The notes under the pieces: generated by a model
Told to the model about the DNA's origin: nothing
Database searches by the model: none
What the model saw: the letters and a program-made list of their open reading frames with translations, nothing else
NCBI GenBank assembly: GCA_964551605.1
Contig: CAZKCV010000002.1
Location: 8,500-72,499 of the forward strand
Direction of reading: 5' to 3'
DNA length: 64,000 nucleotides
Origin: an uncultured Gammaproteobacteria bacterium
Lineage (GTDB): Bacteria; Patescibacteriota; Microgenomatia; Daviesbacterales; UBA10151
Shown here: in pieces, positions 26,655 through 53,236 of the stretch
How the letters are laid out: each line of letters begins with the position of its first letter
Numbering within the stretch: the stretch's first letter is position 1
Made by a program: the position numbers and the translations under genes

Positions 26655-29600
26655 ATGAAGAAAAGAGCAGATACTACCTCACAAATTATCTCCTTGCCCC
26701 GAACCAGAGGCCGCAGAAAAACTAACGGAGAACACCGTACTAATGGTTTAGATGCAAACGGCCGCAGCTTTGAAACCAGGTTCATGTCCCGTTATAAAAA
26801 AATCCCCTCCCTGCCTGCAGGTTTGCCCGTACCCACTTTTTCCGAAAGCTCCAATAAAATCCTGCAGGAGCGCTACCTTTTAAAAGGCGGCAACTTAGAG
26901 ATAGTAGAAACCATATCCGAGCGGTTTTGGCATATTGCCTATGATATTGCTTCCGGAGACTTTGATTTTAATGTAGCGGAAAAGCAGGTTTCTGATCTGG
27001 CCAAGAAGTTTTATTCCATGATGGTCCATCAGGAATTTTTGCCTAATTCCCCGACCATTATGAATGCCGGAAAACAAAACGGCCTGCAATATTCTGCCTG
27101 TTTTGTATTGCCGGTTGGTGATTCCTTGCCGGAGATTTTTGATTCCATCAAATATGCGGCTTTAATTCACCAGACAGGTGGCGGAACCGGGTTTGCTTTC
27201 TCACGTCTTAGGCCGGCCGGCTCGATTGTCAATACTACCGGCGGAGTAGCTTCCGGACCGGTTTCATTTTTACGGGTTTTCAATGCGGCGACAGAATCCA
27301 TTAAGCAGGGCGGTACCAGAAGGGGAGCCAACATGGGTATTTTGCGGGTGGATCATCCGGATATCCTGGAATTTATCCGTTGTAAGGCCGAACTGGATGA
27401 TCTCAATAAGCCGATTTATGAAGGCATTGCCCCGCTTTTGCCTGACGACTCTGCACGGGAGTATGCAAAAACACTGCTTTTGGACAGACAAATTGCCAAT
27501 TTTAATGTTTCCGTGGCTGCCACCGATAAATTCATGCAGGCAGTTGACAAGGGCGGGGATTATGAATTGATAACTCCTCATAATGGCGAGGTGGTGGGAA
27601 AGCTCAACGCCCGGGAAGTCTTTGATGAGATAATTGAAAGGGCCTGGAAAACCGGTGACCCGGGACTCATTTTCATTGACCGGATTAATGATTCCCCTGC
27701 TAATCCGGTACCCTCCATGGAAACAATTGAAGCTACAAATCCGTGTGTAACCGGGGATGCTTGGGTTCATACTAATGTAGGACCGAGACAAGTATCTGAT
27801 TTAACCGGTAGGCCATTTTTAGCCAGAATTAATGGCCGTGATCATCTCTCCGGCTTGGAAGGATTTTTTAAGACCGGTACAAAAAAAGTCATTAATCTAC
27901 AGACAATTGAAGGGTATGGTCTGCGTTTAACTCCAGATCATTTAATAAGAAAAATTACTTGTGTTGGATCTGATCAGGTTGAATGGACTAAGGCGGGAGA
28001 ATTAAAGATTGGAGATTATATTGAGATAAATAACCATAGGGCAAATAGTCAATGGTCCGGAAAATATACATATAAAGAAGGATATCTCATTGGTTTGTTG
28101 GTGGGTGACGGGACATTGAAAGCAGATAAAGCTGTTTTGTCTGTGTGGGACACTTCTAAATTATCAACAGCAGTACAGCCTAGCGGTGCACAAAGCATGA
28201 TGCAATTTGCTCTTCAGAGTACTGATTCAGTACCCCATCGAAGTGATTTCTCTGGTTGGATGTTTTTGCCTGATAGGAATGAGTATCGGATGGCGCTTGG
28301 GTATGTAAAACATTTAGCTCATGAGTTAGGGATGTATCCGGGCAGAAAAACTATTACAAAAGAAATTGAGAAAGCCTCGAGCGATTTTTATAAAGGTTTT
28401 TTGAGAGGATTATTTGATACTGACGGTTCTGTACAAGGTTATGAAGGCGGACGTGTCAGTATCAGGTTAGCTCAATCTGATTTGCCACTGCTTCAGGCAG
28501 TTCAGAGAATGCTACTGCGTTTAGGGATTTTTTCCCATATTTTTCAGAATAGACGCAAAGCAGGCAAAAAATTGCTGCCCGATGGAAAAGGCGGTTATAA
28601 GGAATATCCGGTTAAAGCACAACATGAACTCTCAATCACCATGGATAACATAGAAGTTTTTAATGAATTAATTGGTTTTGCCAATAGTGAAAAGTCAACA
28701 AAATCAGCACAGAAAATAGCATCTCATAGTACTAGAGGTTTTTACAAACAAAAATTTGCAGCAAGGATAAAAAGTATCGAATTTGAATCTAAAGAGGATG
28801 TTTACGATGTTAGTATACCTAAAGTAAATTATTTTGATGCTAATGGAATAATAGCCCATAATTGTGGCGAGCAACCGCTGGCACCCTGGGATGCCTGTAA
28901 TTTAGGCTCCATTAATTTAGGGAAATTTGTCTATGCTGATGGTTCCGGTGTGGATTTTGAAAAGCTAAAACAGGCCACCCATTTGGCAGTTCATTTTCTG
29001 GACAATGTAGTGCAGACAAATCCTTTCACCCTAAAGCAAATTTATGATGAAGTGCGCCAAAACCGGAGAATCGGTTTAGGGGTAATGGGTTTTGCCGATA
29101 TGCTGTTTAAGCTAAAAACCCCCTATAATTCTGATGAGGCTCTTGAGCTGGCTGAAAAAATAATGCAGTTTATTAATGACGAGGGCCATAAAAAATCAGA
29201 AGAGTTGGCTAAAGAGCGGGGTGCCTTCCCGAACTGGGTACATTCTATCTACGCTGACAGGGAAGCTTCGGCTTTCAAGAACAGGCCGGCTGCCTATGCT
29301 TACCAGGGAGGAAGAAAAATCAGAAATTCTACCGTGACTACTATTGCTCCTACGGGTACGATTTCCATTATCGGAGACTGTTCATCCGGCATTGAGCCGG
29401 TCTTTGCTTTGGCCTATATTCACAAAGCTAAAGCCAAAGGAGATCAGTATCGAATTCTGACGATTGCCAACCAAACTTTTACGGATATTGCCAAAAGGGA
29501 AGGTTTTTATAGTGATGACCTGGCTGCAAAGGTGCTGGAACACGGGTCAGTCATCGGTGTAACTGAGATGCCGGAGCAGTGGCAAAAGGTGTTTGTAACG

Positions 29601-30392
29601 GCCCAGGAGATTGACCCGGTCTGGCATGTTAAGATGCAGGCTGCATTTCAGCGGTTTACGGATAATGGCGTGTCTAAAACTATCAACCTACCGAATTCCG
29701 CTACCAAAGATGATGTGGCCCTGGCTTACCAGATGGCCTATGACACCGGCTGTAATGGGATCACCATTTACCGGGATGGTTCCAAGTCTACGCAGGTGTT
29801 AAATGTTTCATCCAGTCTTAATAAATCTGTTGAAGATCCGGCAGCTCCGGTGGCTGAGCGGCCCATGATCCTAAGGGGCCGGACTTATAAAATTTCTACT
29901 CCGGTGGGAGAAGCTTTTATTACCGTTAACCGGGATATAGCTGACCAGCCGTTTGAGGTCTTTGTCACAGTGGGCCGGGCCGGCATGCATACTATGGCAG
30001 ATGCGGAAGCCATGGGTAGGTTGGTTTCATTATCTTTGAGATTGGCCAGGGGAGCCAAAGAAACAGATCCCAAGGCCGTAGCCTTAAAGATTGTCGGGCA
30101 GCTTCGGGGGATCGGGGGAGCCTTAAGTGTAGGGTTTGGCAAAAACCGGGTGCAGAGTTTGGCAGATGCTATTGCCAAAGTCCTGGCAGAAGATTTGGCT
30201 CTGACTCCGGAAGAACGCCAGGTAGAAGCTATTCCATTGGATTTAGCCGTAAACGGAGATCCGGCACCGCTGTCAACCAATAGTGAATTCCCGGCTACCA
30301 ATGCTGATTTGTGTCCTGAGTGCGGTTCAGCCTCCTTTGTGATGGAAGAAGGCTGTAAGAAATGTCATTCGTGTGGCTATAGTATGTGCTGA
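26655..30392 (+). CDS. nrdJ: adenosylcobalamin-dependent (class II) ribonucleotide reductase, intein-containing
   Basis: Class II RNR blocks (active-site NPC|GEQPLAPWDACNLGSINL). C-terminal Cys-rich tail (CPECGS...CKKCHSCGYSMC). 373-aa in-frame insertion at the catalytic Cys. Alternative start ATG 26784. Confidence 0.85.
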   Translation: MKKRADTTSQIISLPRTRGRRKTNGEHRTNGLDANGRSFETRFMSRYKKIPSLPAGLPVPTFSESSNKILQERYLLKGGNLEIVETISERFWHIAYDIASGDFDFNVAEKQVSDLAKKFYSMMVHQEFLPNSPTIMNAGKQNGLQYSACFVLPVGDSLPEIFDSIKYAALIHQTGGGTGFAFSRLRPAGSIVNTTGGVASGPVSFLRVFNAATESIKQGGTRRGANMGILRVDHPDILEFIRCKAELDDLNKPIYEGIAPLLPDDSAREYAKTLLLDRQIANFNVSVAATDKFMQAVDKGGDYELITPHNGEVVGKLNAREVFDEIIERAWKTGDPGLIFIDRINDSPANPVPSMETIEATNPCVTGDAWVHTNVGPRQVSDLTGRPFLARINGRDHLSGLEGFFKTGTKKVINLQTIEGYGLRLTPDHLIRKITCVGSDQVEWTKAGELKIGDYIEINNHRANSQWSGKYTYKEGYLIGLLVGDGTLKADKAVLSVWDTSKLSTAVQPSGAQSMMQFALQSTDSVPHRSDFSGWMFLPDRNEYRMALGYVKHLAHELGMYPGRKTITKEIEKASSDFYKGFLRGLFDTDGSVQGYEGGRVSIRLAQSDLPLLQAVQRMLLRLGIFSHIFQNRRKAGKKLLPDGKGGYKEYPVKAQHELSITMDNIEVFNELIGFANSEKSTKSAQKIASHSTRGFYKQKFAARIKSIEFESKEDVYDVSIPKVNYFDANGIIAHNCGEQPLAPWDACNLGSINLGKFVYADGSGVDFEKLKQATHLAVHFLDNVVQTNPFTLKQIYDEVRQNRRIGLGVMGFADMLFKLKTPYNSDEALELAEKIMQFINDEGHKKSEELAKERGAFPNWVHSIYADREASAFKNRPAAYAYQGGRKIRNSTVTTIAPTGTISIIGDCSSGIEPVFALAYIHKAKAKGDQYRILTIANQTFTDIAKREGFYSDDLAAKVLEHGSVIGVTEMPEQWQKVFVTAQEIDPVWHVKMQAAFQRFTDNGVSKTINLPNSATKDDVALAYQMAYDTGCNGITIYRDGSKSTQVLNVSSSLNKSVEDPAAPVAERPMILRGRTYKISTPVGEAFITVNRDIADQPFEVFVTVGRAGMHTMADAEAMGRLVSLSLRLARGAKETDPKAVALKIVGQLRGIGGALSVGFGKNRVQSLADAIAKVLAEDLALTPEERQVEAIPLDLAVNGDPAPLSTNSEFPATNADLCPECGSASFVMEEGCKKCHSCGYSMC
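27744..28862 (+). mobile_element. intein with LAGLIDADG homing-endonuclease domain inserted at NP|C-GEQ of nrdJ
   Basis: Begins with Cys (CVTGDAWVHT), ends with HN followed by Cys (IIAHN|CGEQ). Two LAGLIDADG-type motifs (YLIGLLVGDGT, FLRGLFDTDGS). Removing it restores the canonical NPCGEQ motif. Confidence 0.8.
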
Positions 30393-30540
30393 CATTTCTT
30401 GCGAAATCTTCGCTTGTTATTGTAATCGTTGTTACAATAACGGCTACGATGTTCTTAAGAACTTGCTCACAAGTTCGCAAGACCTTGCGACAGCAGGCTG
30501 TCTTAAAAAGTGTCATTCGTGTGGCTATTCAATGTGTTAA
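30393..30540 (+). repeat. palindrome-dense ~100-nt element followed by a recoded duplicate of the last ~14 nrdJ codons
   Basis: 30496-30540 encodes GC-L-KKCHSCGYSMC*, matching nrdJ 30351-30392 (GCKKCHSCGYSMC*) with only synonymous changes plus one extra codon. Between the copies lie nested inverted repeats (cttgcgaa/ttcgcaag; ttattgtaa/ttacaataa; gttcttaagaac). Confidence 0.6.
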
Positions 30541-30558
30541 TTTTGATACAATCAAACA

Positions 30559-30804
30559 GTGAAACAAAAGTTAATTGAGATAGTTGGATGGTATGGGGCT
30601 ATTGCCATAGTGGGAGCCTTTGCTTTATCCAGTTTTTCCCTGATTAAACCAACTGATTTGGTATACCAATTACTTAATCTTACAGGAGCAATAGGAATAG
30701 TGGCAGTTTCCTTATATAAAAGAGCTTACCAGCCAGCCGTTTTAAATATCATCTGGACACTGATAGCTTTGGTGGCTGTAGCCAAAATTTTCCTGAATAT
30801 TTAG
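30559..30804 (+). CDS. small 2-3 TM membrane protein, hypothetical
   Basis: 81 aa, hydrophobic, immediately upstream of the left 40-bp repeat. Confidence 0.3.
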   Translation: MKQKLIEIVGWYGAIAIVGAFALSSFSLIKPTDLVYQLLNLTGAIGIVAVSLYKRAYQPAVLNIIWTLIALVAVAKIFLNI

Positions 30805-30813
30805 CTTTCTATC

Positions 30814-31566
30814 CCGAGGTGTCAATACACTTCCACCCCCGAGGTGGAAGCACGAATTAATCTTCGCTATCCAATAGTTGGTGTTTAATTACCTCCAACT
30901 TTTGTGCATAGTCAATTTGGTCATCAACGAACTTTTTGTAATCCATTACAGATTGAAAGAAATTGAGAATTTCTTTCTTTGTGCACATCCCTTTGCCATT
31001 AAGGTATTCATTATAAGACGACCATTCGTAATCTTCTGGCTTCTTAACTAGAAATGACGAGACAGGGTTTAAATGGATATACCGAGAGACATGGATTAAT
31101 TGTTCATCCGATTCTATTAGAACCGCTTTAAATTGTCCTTGCAATAGAGGTCCGACTCTGTCGAACTTAACATTATAGTATTTAGTATAACTATTGGTCA
31201 GTTTGCCGATGAATTCACTTACACCATTTTCTTTTAATTGTTTAATGAGAAAATGGAAATGATTAGGCATTAGGCAATAACAGATAATTTCAACAATCTT
31301 TTTATCAGGATCTGGCTCAAATAATTTGTATTTGATAAAGTTAGAAAACTTTGGTTTAGGTCCTTCTAATTGATAATAACCGATTGCCTGTAAAAACCTT
31401 GTGTAGGTTCTTCTATTTTCAAAAATCCGTCTTTTTTCCACTCCACGGTTGTATACGTGATAAAACTGACCATTAATTAGCGGAGTAATTCTATTTGGCA
31501 TATGAGATCAGAATAACTAAAAATTACCGAGGTGTCAATACACTTCCACCCCCGAGGTGGAAGCAC
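30814..31566 (-). mobile_element. RAYT/IS200-like element: Y1 HUH transposase gene bracketed by identical 40-bp hairpin-containing direct repeats
   Basis: Repeats at 30814-30853 and 31527-31566 (ccgaggtgtcaatacacttccacccccgaggtggaagcac), each with an internal hairpin cttccacc/ggtggaag. They flank ORF 30857..31501. Confidence 0.65.
30857..31501 (-). CDS. REP-associated tyrosine transposase (RAYT) / IS200-family Y1 HUH transposase
   Basis: Signature LMPNHFHFLI (HUH motif) and catalytic Tyr in YIHLNPV (the NPV variant typical of RAYTs). 214 aa. Confidence 0.7.
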   Translation of the reverse strand: MPNRITPLINGQFYHVYNRGVEKRRIFENRRTYTRFLQAIGYYQLEGPKPKFSNFIKYKLFEPDPDKKIVEIICYCLMPNHFHFLIKQLKENGVSEFIGKLTNSYTKYYNVKFDRVGPLLQGQFKAVLIESDEQLIHVSRYIHLNPVSSFLVKKPEDYEWSSYNEYLNGKGMCTKKEILNFFQSVMDYKKFVDDQIDYAQKLEVIKHQLLDSED

Positions 31567-31597
31567 AAATTGAAGAGTTCTTTGTTAGAATAAGCTC

Positions 31598-32131
31598 ATG
31601 AATCAGGAAAAGGGATTGGTGATTTTATATACCGGGGAGGGGAAGGGAAAAACGACGGCCGCTTTAGGATTGGTCCTGCGGGCAGTAGGATACAAAAGGA
31701 AATGCCTGATAATCCAGTTTGGCAAAATGTGGTTTACAGGAGAAGTTGCCGGAGTTAAAAAGCTTTCTCCTTTAGTCAAATTCATCCAAGGCGGCAAAGG
31801 ATTTGTTAAGATTTTAGGTGATAAACTGCCTCTAAAAGAGCACAAAAAAGCAGCATTGGATACGTTTAATTTATTAGAAAAAGAAGTGAAATCCGGCAAA
31901 TGGGATGTGGTGGTAGGAGATGAGATTGTGGGGGCTGTTTCCTCAGGACTATTATCTCTTACAAAGGTATTACGTCTTATTCATAATAAACCTACGGAGT
32001 TAGATTTAGTATTAACAGGCCATCATGCCTCTAAAAAATTAATGGAGATGGCAGATATAGTGACTGAGATGCGGGAGGTTAAACACCCTTATAAACAAGG
32101 CATTTTGGCAAAAAGGGGTCTTGACTTTTAG
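31598..32131 (+). CDS. cobO: ATP:cob(I)alamin adenosyltransferase (CobA/CobO/BtuR family)
   Basis: KGLVILYTGEGKGKTTAALG P-loop and conserved C-terminal DLVLTGHHA...VTEM...KHPY region typical of CobO/BtuR. Confidence 0.75.
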   Translation: MNQEKGLVILYTGEGKGKTTAALGLVLRAVGYKRKCLIIQFGKMWFTGEVAGVKKLSPLVKFIQGGKGFVKILGDKLPLKEHKKAALDTFNLLEKEVKSGKWDVVVGDEIVGAVSSGLLSLTKVLRLIHNKPTELDLVLTGHHASKKLMEMADIVTEMREVKHPYKQGILAKRGLDF

Positions 32132-37419: not shown

Positions 37420-37460
37420 TAGTACCTCCCCTTGAGTAAAGACTTTGTAATTTAGCTTTC

Positions 37461-37480
37461 CACACCCGGTGTGTGTATTC
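37461..37480 (+). terminator. hairpin (cacacc-c-ggtgtg) followed by A/T-rich tract downstream of the lipoprotein gene
   Basis: Perfect 6-bp stem palindrome ccacacccggtgtgtg, then tattcaaaatt. Confidence 0.35.
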
Positions 37481-37689
37481 AAAATTATTATTAATTTAAA
37501 CCTCCAATCCGGGATTGTAGGTTCGAAGTTTCACTCATCAACATCAATCATTGTATGCTTGATTAGTTCCAGTTTTGCTCCATAATCTGCCTGATCAAGG
37601 ACAAATTTTTCATAATCTGCTGTCTCAATTCTAAAAGCTTTAACAGCTTTTGGAAAAACTAGTAGATATTGACACAAGAGAACTTAATC

Positions 37690-52895: not shown

Positions 52896-53195
52896 ATGAA
52901 TCTGGAACTCATAAGGCATTTAGTAATTGAAGAGAATATTAAAAAGATCATGATTGATGGTAGAAAACCTAAATGGTATTCACTTAAATTAAAAAAGGTT
53001 CTAAGGGATAAAGGAATTTCAGTTAAAAAGGTAACTACAGTTAGAAAAGATAAATCCAGCCCGGGAATAAGGGTATCAGATTGTTTGGCAGGACTTTTTA
53101 GATATTATTATGATAATCCTGAAAGTAGAGCTTCGGAGTGGCATAAGAAATTAACAAAAGCCAAAAAGATTGAATTTGAGTTAACTTCCCATTAA
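52896..53195 (+). CDS. hypothetical basic protein (99 aa)
   Basis: Lys-rich ORF. Its 3' end including the stop codon lies in a perfect 36-bp tandem duplication. Confidence 0.3.
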   Translation: MNLELIRHLVIEENIKKIMIDGRKPKWYSLKLKKVLRDKGISVKKVTTVRKDKSSPGIRVSDCLAGLFRYYYDNPESRASEWHKKLTKAKKIEFELTSH

Positions 53196-53236
53196 AAAAG
53201 AAAGATTGAATTTGAGTTAACTTCCCATTAAAAAAG
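53165..53236 (+). repeat. perfect tandem duplication (2 x 36 bp: aaagattgaatttgagttaacttcccattaaaaaag)
   Basis: Direct sequence comparison. Followed by an imperfect hairpin gccccgctt-aaa-agcgaggc. Confidence 0.8.

Follow-up and report, generated by a model that had tools for sequence, protein, structure and literature searches.

A probable REPtron-like cassette in Patescibacteria, with a Y1 HUH endonuclease gene between two cognate hairpin units

Introduction

REP/RAYT systems are the best-studied case in which a domesticated transposase keeps a population of short mobile hairpins. To our knowledge, nearly all characterization of these systems to date has been in Proteobacteria, Cyanobacteria, and Bacteroidetes. 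The Patescibacteria have genomes of ~1 Mb that are nearly free of repeats.

In the E. coli REPtron, a low-copy, vertically inherited gene for TnpA_REP (RAYT, YafM) lies between cognate hairpin repeats (PMC2817692; PMC3479197). Canonical RAYTs have a conserved N-terminal Thr and, following the Tyr, an NP(L/V)(R/K)xG motif (Nunvar 2010, PMC2817692). Among TnpA_Y1 proteins, the motif Y---NP defines class 2 and Y---Q defines class 1, or IS200 (Quentin 2018, PMC6006769). We equate three published groupings, namely TnpA_Y1 subclass 2.1 (PMC6006769), RAYT Group 1 (Bertels 2017, PMC5581495), and most TIRYTs/TIRtrons (Di Nocera 2013, PMC3733652). Subclass 2.1 was reported without REP-like structures nearby (PMC6006769), and the genes for TIRYTs lie between terminal inverted repeats that contain GGGGWSAS (PMC3733652). 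Patescibacteria are missing from the taxonomic distributions in all three papers (PMC6006769, PMC5581495, PMC3733652), and in a limited literature collection we found no paper that ties RAYT/REPIN or IS200-type palindromic repeats to Patescibacteria or the candidate phyla radiation.

Like the E. coli REPtron, the locus described here has a low-copy, vertically inherited Y1 gene flanked by hairpin repeats. We favor, with a probability of roughly 0.7, its reading as a REPtron-like cassette, wherein a fixed Y1 gene of the RAYT/TnpA_REP class lies within two cognate units of 37 to 40 nt. The system belongs to an undescribed clade of Patescibacteria, to which the logic of REP/RAYT systems would thereby extend.

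Results

A Y1 HUH endonuclease gene lies between two identical hairpin repeats

The DNA analyzed is a single 64-kb stretch, hereafter called the window. The original prediction was that one of its ORFs encodes a protein with the HUH and catalytic Tyr signature of IS200/RAYT enzymes, and that this ORF is flanked by two perfect 40-bp direct repeats, each with an internal 8-bp hairpin. Both statements are borne out by the following features.

30857 to 31501, minus strand: Y1 HUH endonuclease gene (214 aa; class 2, RAYT-like; HUH residues H81-F82-H83; catalytic Y141)
31527 to 31571, minus strand: upstream hairpin unit (40/40 repeat; covariance model score 58.6 bits; kept in 8 orthologous loci)
31543 to 31563, no strand assigned: hairpin of the upstream unit (8-bp stem, 5-nt loop)
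30814 to 30858, minus strand: downstream hairpin unit, in the orientation of the upstream unit (covariance model score 61.8 bits)
30830 to 30850, no strand assigned: hairpin of the downstream unit, with the same fold as the upstream hairpin
31510 to 31538, minus strand: promoter-like site of the Y1 gene (−35 TTGACA, 17 nt, −10 TATTCT, 8 nt to the ATG)

The motifs LMPNHFHFLI (containing H81 and H83) and YIHLNPV (containing Y141) are both intact in the 214-aa ORF, and a search with the PF01797 (Y1_Tnp) profile, which had been suggested as a check, scores 33.9 bits (cut-off 23; E 3.8e-8) and identifies the protein as a Y1 HUH enzyme. The catalytic residues H81, H83, and Y141 show no variation across 124 homologs, nor across 21 homologs with 35 to 58% identity. 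The Tyr motif is of the Y---NP form (YIHLNP), which places the protein in class 2 of the TnpA_Y1 enzymes. As judged from Daviesbacteria orthologs, the enzyme is under strong purifying selection, with dN/dS values of 0.03 to 0.065 (about 0.04) at a pS of about 0.7.

We call the protein RAYT-like rather than a canonical RAYT because it misses the cut-off of the NCBIfam REP_Tyr_transpos equivalog (NF047646; 57.5 bits against 80), where the alignment is limited to residues 67 to 161. The NP(L/V)(R/K)xG motif is missing, and the protein reads NPVSSF after the Tyr. The N-terminal Thr is also missing from the first strand, which reads FYHVYNRG. An AF2 model was obtained from a 124-sequence alignment (pLDDT 89.7), and a 17-sequence run (pLDDT 50) was set aside. 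By structure comparison, the fold nearest to this model is that of the E. coli REP-associated transposase 4ER8, and the predicted fold is nearer to TnpA_REP than to the TnpA proteins of IS608 or ISDra2. Searches of the PDB by sequence alone gave no significant match, with 4er8 at E 0.15 to 0.93. The protein is longer than the E. coli TnpA_REP (214 versus 165 aa) and ends in a C-terminal extension that is predicted to be helical. No second Pfam domain was detected in it at E ≤ 0.01 and no DnaA_C/HTH in the C-terminal tail, which sets it apart from TIRYTs with their C-terminal HTH (Bac_DnaA_C, HTH_23, HTH_28). A profile search seeded with 21 diverse sequences returned only homologs with at least 53% identity and so did not broaden our view of the family.

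The repeat, CCGAGGTGTCAATACACTTCCACCCCCGAGGTGGAAGCAC, occupies positions 30814 to 30853 and 31527 to 31566 with 40/40 identity, or 44/45 when extended to 30858 and 31571. Both copies contain the hairpin CTTCCACC-CCCGA-GGTGGAAG (30830 to 30850 and 31543 to 31563), whose calculated DNA fold has an energy of ~ −10 kcal/mol (z ~ −3). On the gene strand, the upstream unit reads GTG-CTTCCACC-TCGGG-GGTGGAAG-TGTA-TTGACACCTCGG, a hairpin followed by a short spacer and a tail that duplicates the hairpin's 5′ arm and loop. The bases adjacent to the hairpin foot are GTGC or TACA. The GT[AG]G of the E. coli REPtron is absent from this position, and the conserved element is instead the 3′ tail CAC(C/A)TCGG, which covaries with the C/A variant of the hairpin among 49 units. 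The downstream unit begins 3 nt past the Y1 stop codon (in the 45-nt version, 2 nt of the unit fall within the stop codon), and its hairpin is found in all orthologs examined, with a partly decayed tail in some. With filters off, a search of the window by a covariance model of the unit recovers only these two copies (next best 12 bits), and an Rfam search over 30300 to 32000 returned nothing relevant.

The promoter-like site agrees with the consensus at 10 of 12 positions, and its −35 TTGACA falls within the tail of the upstream unit, an arrangement unlike that of the E. coli REPtron. The TTGACA and TAnnnT elements are unchanged across 8 orthologous upstream regions and are found with Blackburnbacteria paralogs as well. 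We base the promoter call on this conservation, because the number of promoter-like sites in a scan was not above that in shuffles. The gene has no Shine-Dalgarno sequence, and the mRNA is therefore probably leaderless.

The Y1 gene is an old resident of its chromosomal site

In seven species-level Daviesbacteria genomes (the window, L001, L003/4, L043, L006, L054, and L010), the Y1 gene occupies the identical place, upstream of nrdJ and in divergent orientation to cobO, with protein identities of 64 to 100%. The element was originally placed between nrdJ and cobO, which is correct in general, except that one further gene intervenes on the nrdJ side.

30559 to 30804: CBU_0592-family membrane-protein gene (81 aa), between nrdJ and the element

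It had also been anticipated that relatives would have nrdJ and cobO without the element. Close relatives instead carry the Y1 gene at the same site, and thus the gene has long resided there, passed on vertically, and is not a recent insertion. The upstream units of the window and L001 are identical at 36 of 37 positions, though synonymous sites are near saturation. By this comparison, conservation of the flanking units exceeds that of synonymous sites.

This history bears on the possibility that the locus is an autonomous IS200/IS605-type IS, wherein the whole ~0.75-kb cassette would be mobile as single-stranded DNA and the hairpins would be its left and right ends. The layout is indeed that of IS608 and ISDra2, with two similar subterminal hairpins, direct and on the same strand, around a small gene for a Y1 HUH fold in a compact cassette (753 bp). 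The whole hairpin-gene-hairpin cassette is also present in another context (EamA / F420 ligase) in the L007-L009 lineage (69% identity), more distant homologs do not adjoin cobO, and a decayed second copy lies 6 kb from the intact cassette in the window.

37531 to 37650, minus strand: relic of a second Y1 paralog, of which the C-terminal ~39 aa are left (DYEKFVLDQADYGAKLELIKHTMID...)
37449 to 37476, minus strand: hairpin unit, ACACACACCGGGTGTGGAAAGCTAAATT, on the downstream side of the relic; its type is the one that flanks the L117 homolog

The relic aligns with residues 176 to 214 by tblastn (46% identity, E 8e-6) and with the L117 homolog by BLASTP (E 9e-8). A tRNA had been suspected beside the relic (37.5 kb), and a search found none.

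Nevertheless, we consider an autonomous IS unlikely. The chromosomal position is fixed across the seven species-level genomes despite saturated synonymous sites, and the gene is low in copy number: most protein clusters are on 1 to 4 contigs, no near-identical paralogs were found among the loci examined, and the paralogs that were seen share just 47% identity and differ in their hairpins. The protein carries Y---NP rather than the Y---Q of IS200 transposases, has 214 aa compared with a core-only protein of ~150 aa, and is modeled with a fold nearer to that of TnpA_REP, as noted above. Single-hairpin units of 37 to 40 nt exist independently of the cassette. No tnpB gene is among the neighbors of the Y1 gene, and searches of PHROGs, PADLOC, and viral contigs gave no matches, so that a phage or defense-system reading is likewise without support.

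Matched hairpins accompany homologous genes and occur as solo units

When the two flanks of the gene were compared at 82 distinct loci (35 to 100% protein identity), the score for a hairpin common to both had a median of 20, compared with a null mean of 8.4, and it exceeded the 99th percentile of the null in 48 of the 82. Across the family the two flanking hairpins are direct at 29 loci, inverted at 10, and ambiguous at 9. The direct orientation and the 214-aa length were originally called atypical. This is true relative to canonical proteobacterial RAYTs, but both are usual in this clade, where homologs have 185 to 244 aa. Across Patescibacteria, the hairpin sequence changes with protein lineage, two Blackburnbacteria Y1 paralogs (47% identical) each have a separate loop variant, and three units within one genome are identical. 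These are the marks of hairpin-protein co-evolution, a property shared with the E. coli REPtron.

Solo copies of the repeat exist in related genomes, both within genes and in intergenic DNA, as solo copies do in the REPtron; the window has none. Matches to the 19-nt hairpin pattern number at least 13 in one genome of Blackburnbacteria and 5 to 6 in one of Gottesmanbacteria, and the L001 and L003 genomes contain additional solo sites. Solo units number at least 11 in Blackburnbacteria JACPEJ01, and Daviesbacteria JACOXH01, JAJYNW01, CP066688.1, and GCA_001776735.1 have 1 to 2 extra units each. The solo units bear the tail of the gene-flanking units, and within a genome both kinds have the hairpin variant peculiar to that lineage. 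In the complete Daviesbacteria genome CP066688.1 there is only one exact pattern match, plus two diverged copies in the 12.6 kb examined, and with so few copies there is no REP "population" of classical size in Daviesbacteria. Conservation at orthologous loci, together with dispersal through related genomes, shows that the repeats are not a local duplication, and we regard them as cognate hairpin units. We attribute to chance the pattern matches in about 13 high-GC genomes (Streptomyces, Pseudomonas, and others), as the information content of the pattern leads us to expect, by our own estimate, ~17.

Some units lie within genes. Nineteen of the 57 units that do not adjoin a Y1 gene are inside ORFs with Pfam domains on either side, and in-frame units were found in related genomes within lepA, murD-like, asnB-like, and recJ genes. 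The LepA linker of Daviesbacteria has 9 aa in 56 representatives and is a unit-encoded segment of 15 to 23 aa in about 25, and the presence of the unit in lepA varies among close relatives. The two forms differ by replacement of 24 nt with 45 nt rather than by a clean insertion, and thus the target site is unreadable from this comparison. In GCA_001776735.1, TGTCCACCCTTGGGGTGGAAT is common to the lepA unit and both Y1-flanking units, and the identical lepA site in other lineages reads TTCCAC(C/A)TCGGGGGTGGAA.

If the locus is a REPtron-like cassette, the Y1 protein would bind the hairpin in single-stranded DNA, for example in the lagging-strand template, and would nick and rejoin the DNA beside it. 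The nick would probably fall at the repeated CAC(C/A)TCGG motif or close by. Such reactions would copy, move, or homogenize the short units while the Y1 gene stays put, and by binding at the upstream unit the protein may feed back on the promoters of its own gene and of the divergent cobO. Another possible origin of solo units is solo-LTR-like recombination, in which the two direct repeats of a full cassette inserted once would recombine with each other.

The same observations may be read as a host-integrated, non-selfish system in which the Y1 enzyme continuously re-templates a small fixed set of units, which we hold to be quite unlikely. Under this reading, the maintained units would include those that encode linker peptides in housekeeping genes such as lepA, one unit would be the shared control region of Y1 and cobO beside the B12-dependent nrdJ, and a single-strand DNA nuclease would work in ultra-small genomes as a device for maintenance or regulation.

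Ordinary cis-regulatory elements, immobile and selected for a shared factor, could be proposed instead, with an operator or promoter upstream and a terminator or mRNA-stabilizing stem downstream. This would suit an upstream unit that holds the conserved −35 box between two divergent genes, a downstream hairpin that directly follows the stop codon between convergent genes, and a near-perfect palindrome of the kind often seen in operators. We judge this explanation very improbable, because neither hairpin precedes a T-run and a terminator scan found nothing, and because the unit with its tail occurs far from Y1 genes and in frame in the four genes named above, where its presence in lepA differs among close relatives. 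Nor is the protein a typical repressor; it is an HUH enzyme with a nuclease fold, and its catalytic residues are conserved. Chance, or a recent local 40-bp duplication around an unrelated ORF, would fit the presence of only two copies in the 64-kb window, but is refuted by the recurrence of the arrangement in orthologous loci of many genomes and at 48 or more of the 82 homologous loci, and two matches to the 40-nt repeat appeared in 0 of 100 dinucleotide-preserving shuffles.

Discussion

Compared with the E. coli REPtron, in which repeats form inverted pairs or BIMEs, the favored REPtron-like cassette has single flanking units in direct orientation. The unit itself is distinctive in combining a hairpin with a half-repeat tail and a built-in promoter, and in having few copies per genome, very few in Daviesbacteria.

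The protein resembles subclass 2.1, whose motifs NH[YF]H, FQ, Y[IV]HLNP, and SS correspond to NHFH, LQ (family consensus LFQG), YIHLNP, and WSS, as judged by eye against Table 1 of PMC6006769. Its length is in the range of that subclass (median 238 aa), as is its low copy number. The motifs of the clade thus fit a subclass (2.1 / Group 1 / TIRYT) reported without REP-like partners, yet hairpins flank the gene. Unlike the inverted repeats of TIRYTs, these are matched, self-complementary, and mostly direct, and the string nearest to GGGGWSAS is GGGGTGGA. The cassette offers a compact and tractable test case for hairpin recognition, active homogenization, and the retention of single-copy "transposases".

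Units that lie in frame within housekeeping genes appear to evolve in concert with the gene-flanking copies. In this they recall the Rickettsia palindromic elements and intragenic REPs (cited in PMC3733652 and PMC6006769), which are also short palindromic units placed in frame in conserved genes, at inter-domain linkers, and with the ORF undamaged. The units described here differ in being about 37 to 45 nt long and in being tied to a specific Y1 gene that they flank.

A Y1 transposase gene lies between two copies of a hairpin unit

The region containing the Y1 gene is organized as follows (window coordinates).

26655-30392: nrdJ, class II ribonucleotide reductase
30559-30804: gene for an 81-aa CBU_0592-family membrane protein, between nrdJ and the element
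30814-30853: 40-mer CCGAGGTGTCAATACACTTCCACCCCCGAGGTGGAAGCAC, copy 1, identical to copy 2
30857-31501 (-): Y1 ORF, 214 aa, with LMPNHFHFLI and YIHLNPV
31527-31566: 40-mer CCGAGGTGTCAATACACTTCCACCCCCGAGGTGGAAGCAC, copy 2, identical to copy 1
31598-32131: cobO, divergent from the Y1 ORF

The original prediction of an ORF with HUH and YIHLNPV motifs, surrounded by two 40-bp direct repeats that each contain a hairpin, is confirmed. Its placement between nrdJ and cobO also holds, but the 81-aa CBU_0592-family gene separates nrdJ from the element. Identity between the repeats extends beyond the 40-mer to 44 of 45 positions, and both copies carry the hairpin CTTCCACC/CCCGA/GGTGGAAG, which is predicted to fold as single-stranded DNA with about -10 kcal/mol (z about -3). 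No third copy of the 40-mer is present in the window with up to three mismatches tolerated, and two matches were seen in 0 of 100 shuffles. A covariance model of the unit (R1), derived from 49 units and run with filters off, detected the two flanking copies alone in the 64 kb (61.8 and 58.6 bits; next match, 12 bits).

The Y1 protein is a conserved TnpA_REP-like enzyme

Membership in the Y1 family (PF01797) is borne out by a Pfam Y1_Tnp match of 33.9 bits (cut-off, 23). The NCBIfam REP_Tyr_transpos profile aligns with residues 67-161 alone and scores 57.5 bits, under its cut-off of 80, and sequence searches of the PDB gave just weak matches, to 4ER8 (an E. coli REP-associated transposase) and ISDra2 TnpA. 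An AlphaFold model computed from an alignment of 124 sequences is confident (pLDDT 89.7, pTM 0.86). Neither 124 close homologues nor 21 homologues at 35-58% identity show any change at H81, H83 or Y141, and Y14, H15, R19, N110, G117, K125 and N145 are likewise invariant. The protein is a conserved HUH/Tyr enzyme under selection, with a TnpA_REP-like fold.

A Y---NP motif is characteristic of class 2, TnpA_REP-like enzymes, and Y---Q of class 1 (IS200) enzymes (Quentin et al. 2018, PMC6006769). The motifs NHFH, (L/F)Q, YIHLNP and SS fit subclass 2.1, which corresponds to Bertels Group 1 and most TIRYTs. Unlike the RAYT of Nunvar et al. 2010 (PMC2817692), the Y1 protein lacks both an N-terminal Thr and NP(L/V)(R/K)xG. 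PHROG and PADLOC searches returned zero matches, and no relatives were found in the viral contigs searched.

The gene is an old resident of its locus

More than 7,900 homologues of the Y1 protein were found, the best 120 of which are 60-89% identical and 206-259 aa long; named members among these 120 are mostly Candidatus Daviesbacteria. Orthologues P0004 (86%), P0011 (82%), P0021 (72%; from the complete 820-kb genome CP066688.1) and P0071 (64%) occupy the equivalent site, where the gene is divergent from cobO, followed by lon and an H+-PPase gene, with nrdJ downstream. The relatives anticipated to have nrdJ and cobO adjacent without the element thus did not materialize, since the orthologues keep the gene in place. 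By local tblastn, seven species-level genomes have cobO on the opposite strand, ~95-165 nt upstream of the Y1 gene; cobO was not found as a neighbour in L007-L009 (69%), where the context is EamA and F420-ligase, or in homologues of at most 63% identity. Comparison of the window with L001 or L004 gives a dN/dS of 0.04-0.05 (pS about 0.7). Together with the synteny, this value marks the gene not as a recent insertion but as a long-standing resident that is inherited vertically and held under strong purifying selection.

Several loci titled "uncultured Gammaproteobacteria" (L043, L054, L067 and others, from binchicken / ERP119705 MAGs) have 37-46% GC and carry a Daviesbacteria-like Y1 gene (70-74% identical), cobO, lon and nrdJ in matching order. 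The taxonomic label of these MAGs is probably wrong.

The unit has a conserved anatomy and an embedded promoter

Written along the gene strand, the unit is GTG-CTTCCACC-TCGGG-GGTGGAAG-TGTA-TTGACACCTCGG. Orthologous loci carry this hairpin both ~60 nt 5′ of the ATG and within ~10 nt 3′ of the stop codon, and the upstream units of the window and L001 are identical at 36 of 37 positions while synonymous sites are near saturation. When eight upstream regions are aligned, the columns without variation are those of the TCCAC/GTGGA stem core, of TTGACAC and of a TAnnnT hexamer, the last located 17 nt past TTGACAC and about 8 nt before the ATG. A consensus promoter scan identified TTGACA-17-TATTCT (10 of 12 matches). 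The tail therefore supplies the -35 box of the Y1 gene, such that a promoter is embedded in the upstream unit, and the Y1 mRNA is probably leaderless. Both Blackburnbacteria paralogues are preceded by an equivalent hairpin-TTGACA-17-TAnnnT arrangement. TTGACA is often lost from downstream and solo units (e.g. GCTGCAC, TTTGCAC), which is consistent with promoter selection upstream only.

The tail is itself a truncated second copy of the hairpin 5′ arm and loop, TT..CAC(C/A)TCGG, whose C/A variant agrees with that of the hairpin across the 49 units with four exceptions. No T-run follows either hairpin, a terminator scan called none, and an Rfam search gave no match at the units. The flanking units are conserved and look functional.

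A conserved TA..AT hexamer lies 6-7 nt before the cobO ATG (31572-31600; TAGAAT in the window, TAAAAT in relatives), and thus cobO also looks leaderless. The upstream hairpin unit is positioned about where its -35 region would fall.

Flanking hairpins follow the protein across the family

A metagenome scan added 80 loci at 35-63% identity. Of the distinct loci, 82 had enough flanking sequence for comparison, and their best ungapped upstream-downstream matches had a median score of 20. In mismatched locus pairs, a null inflated by related hairpins, the mean was 8.4 and the 99th percentile 17.5, which 48 of the 82 loci nevertheless exceeded. Repeats are direct at 29 loci, inverted at 10 and ambiguous at 9; in L004 and L010, the loop alone of the downstream hairpin is flipped. 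Hairpins are lineage specific (e.g. GATTACACC-TCTAA-GGTGTAATC, ATTCGAGGT-GAG-ACCTCGAAT, and a 40-nt palindrome in L138), and their arms co-vary between lineages, following the protein. The units at both ends of the Y1 gene are cognate and selected.

A decayed second Y1 paralogue is present in the window at 37449-37650 (-), with its C-terminal ~39 codons left (46% identical to residues 176-214). After it comes another type of hairpin unit, ACACACACCGGGTGTGGAAAGCTAAATT, which resembles the one that flanks the L117 homologue.

Solo units are dispersed and polymorphic

The pattern TTCCACMTCGGGRGTGGAA matched 90 stretches among 185,579 species genomes. About 13 are from high-GC genomes with one match each, where we estimate ~17 by chance; the remainder are from low-GC, Patescibacteria-like MAGs. 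Blackburnbacteria JACPEJ01 has at least 13 matches, two of them flanking a Y1 gene (L073), and one Gottesmanbacteria genome has 5-6. The genomes of L001 (JACOXH01; L094) and L003 (JAJYNW01; L076) each hold an extra solo copy, and CP066688.1 has a single exact match, with diverged copies 3′ of the Y1 gene and 6 kb away. Solo copies are the same hairpin-plus-tail unit as the gene-flanking copies, some with an additional inverted tail 5′ that creates a long palindrome. Units of one genome share a lineage-specific hairpin variant.

Leaving aside units that adjoin a Y1 gene or the edge of a locus, 57 remain, of which 24 separate tandem genes, 7 convergent genes and 7 divergent genes, and 19 reside inside long ORFs. 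About one third of the units not adjoining a Y1 gene are thus intragenic, a location with published precedent for REPs (PMC3733652, PMC6006769). The unit-bearing ORFs are genuine genes with Pfam domains on either side (LepA, MurD-like ligase, AsnB-like protein, RecJ, Wzy_C/TPR protein); of the large proteins, the one scanned had no Pfam match.

Units inside ORFs that stay open (locus, position, gene)
L017, 4009; L020, 2833; L100, 2808; L014, 3522; L070, 531; L086, 4625; L098, 6554: collectively the MurD-like ligase, AsnB-like protein, RecJ, Wzy_C/TPR protein and three large proteins
L094, 2668-2709, lepA
L076, 7569-7610, lepA
L065 and L066, lepA
L186, 1045-1086, lepA

The lepA (EF4) unit lies in frame in a linker after the GTPase domain, at a site common to L094, L076, L065 and L066. 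This site is polymorphic in Daviesbacteria: of 84 parsable LepA representatives, 56 contain the 9-aa linker KQEIDKPLK, and about 25 have a 15-23-aa unit-encoded linker such as KSRGVATLPPPMWKFR. In the DNA, 45 nt that include the unit take the place of 24 nt, and R1 detects the unit when lepA is filled but not when it is empty. In GCA_001776735.1, the lineage-specific hairpin TGTCCACCCTTGGGGTGGAAT and a TTGACACCT tail are common to the lepA unit (L186) and the two units flanking the Y1 gene (L009); the equivalent lepA site of other lineages carries TTCCAC(C/A)TCGGGGGTGGAA. This shared variant reflects either concerted evolution of units within the genome or repeated targeting of the site, either of which implies that the units still interact with the Y1 enzyme of that lineage.

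Outside Patescibacteria, an identical 19-nt hairpin, TTCCACCTCGGGGGTGGAA, occurs in WOR-3 (L077), flanking a Y1 gene of 43% identity and directly adjoining its ATG, and in Omnitrophota WFRI01 (L064, L080, L083, L099). These occurrences suggest that the system has been transferred horizontally or that the hairpin is very strongly constrained. Among the Omnitrophota copies, several pair up as inverted doublets and several have T-runs after them.

A model for unit dispersal

TnpA_REP and IS608 TnpA have established Y1 HUH behaviour. By analogy, the Y1 protein would recognise the folded hairpin on single-stranded DNA and would cleave and rejoin near it via a 5′-phosphotyrosine intermediate. These reactions may copy, move or convert the 37-40-nt units, with the Y1 gene itself presumably no longer mobile, and a second recognition or cleavage element would most obviously be the repeated CAC(C/A)TCGG motif. 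Because two promoters lie back to back on either side of the hairpin (the Y1 -35 box in the tail and the conserved TA..AT hexamer just 5′ of the cobO ATG), we speculate that binding could also regulate both genes.

The main alternative, an autonomous IS200-type element, would accommodate the direct orientation of the hairpins, the compact cassette, its different context in the L007 lineage and the decayed paralogue in the window, but the synteny of the gene, its class-2 motifs and fold, the lack of near-identical copies among the loci examined and the solo units with one hairpin count against it. Purely regulatory hairpins would leave the solo and intragenic copies unexplained. Chance duplication of the 40-bp repeat is excluded.

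Systems of this kind are already known as REPtrons or TIRtrons. A search of a limited literature collection found no paper tying RAYT/REPIN to Patescibacteria. What is new is this host group, hairpins clearly partnered with a subclass-2.1-like protein, the anatomy and direct orientation of the unit, its embedded promoter, the very small unit population, and in-frame units that appear to evolve in concert with gene-flanking ones.

Additional features of the window

The nrdJ gene contains a 373-aa intein (27744-28862) with LAGLIDADG-type motifs (...TNP/CVTGDAWV...YLIGLLVGDGT...LRGLFDTDGS...IIAHN/CGEQ, slashes marking its boundaries); the orthologues in L001, L003 and L006 (807-903 aa) are without it. 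The 3′ end of nrdJ (~33 nt at 30356-30388, encoding KKCHSCGYSMC and the stop codon) is duplicated 148 nt downstream at 30504-30536 with 85% identity. A similar duplication adjoins nrdJ in L004 (6904-6940 and 7003-7039), indicating that it is conserved. Elsewhere, a 36-nt non-coding unit, AAAGATTGAATTTGAGTTAACTTCCCATTAAAAAAG, forms a perfect tandem duplication at 53165-53236, directly 5′ of a GC-rich stem.
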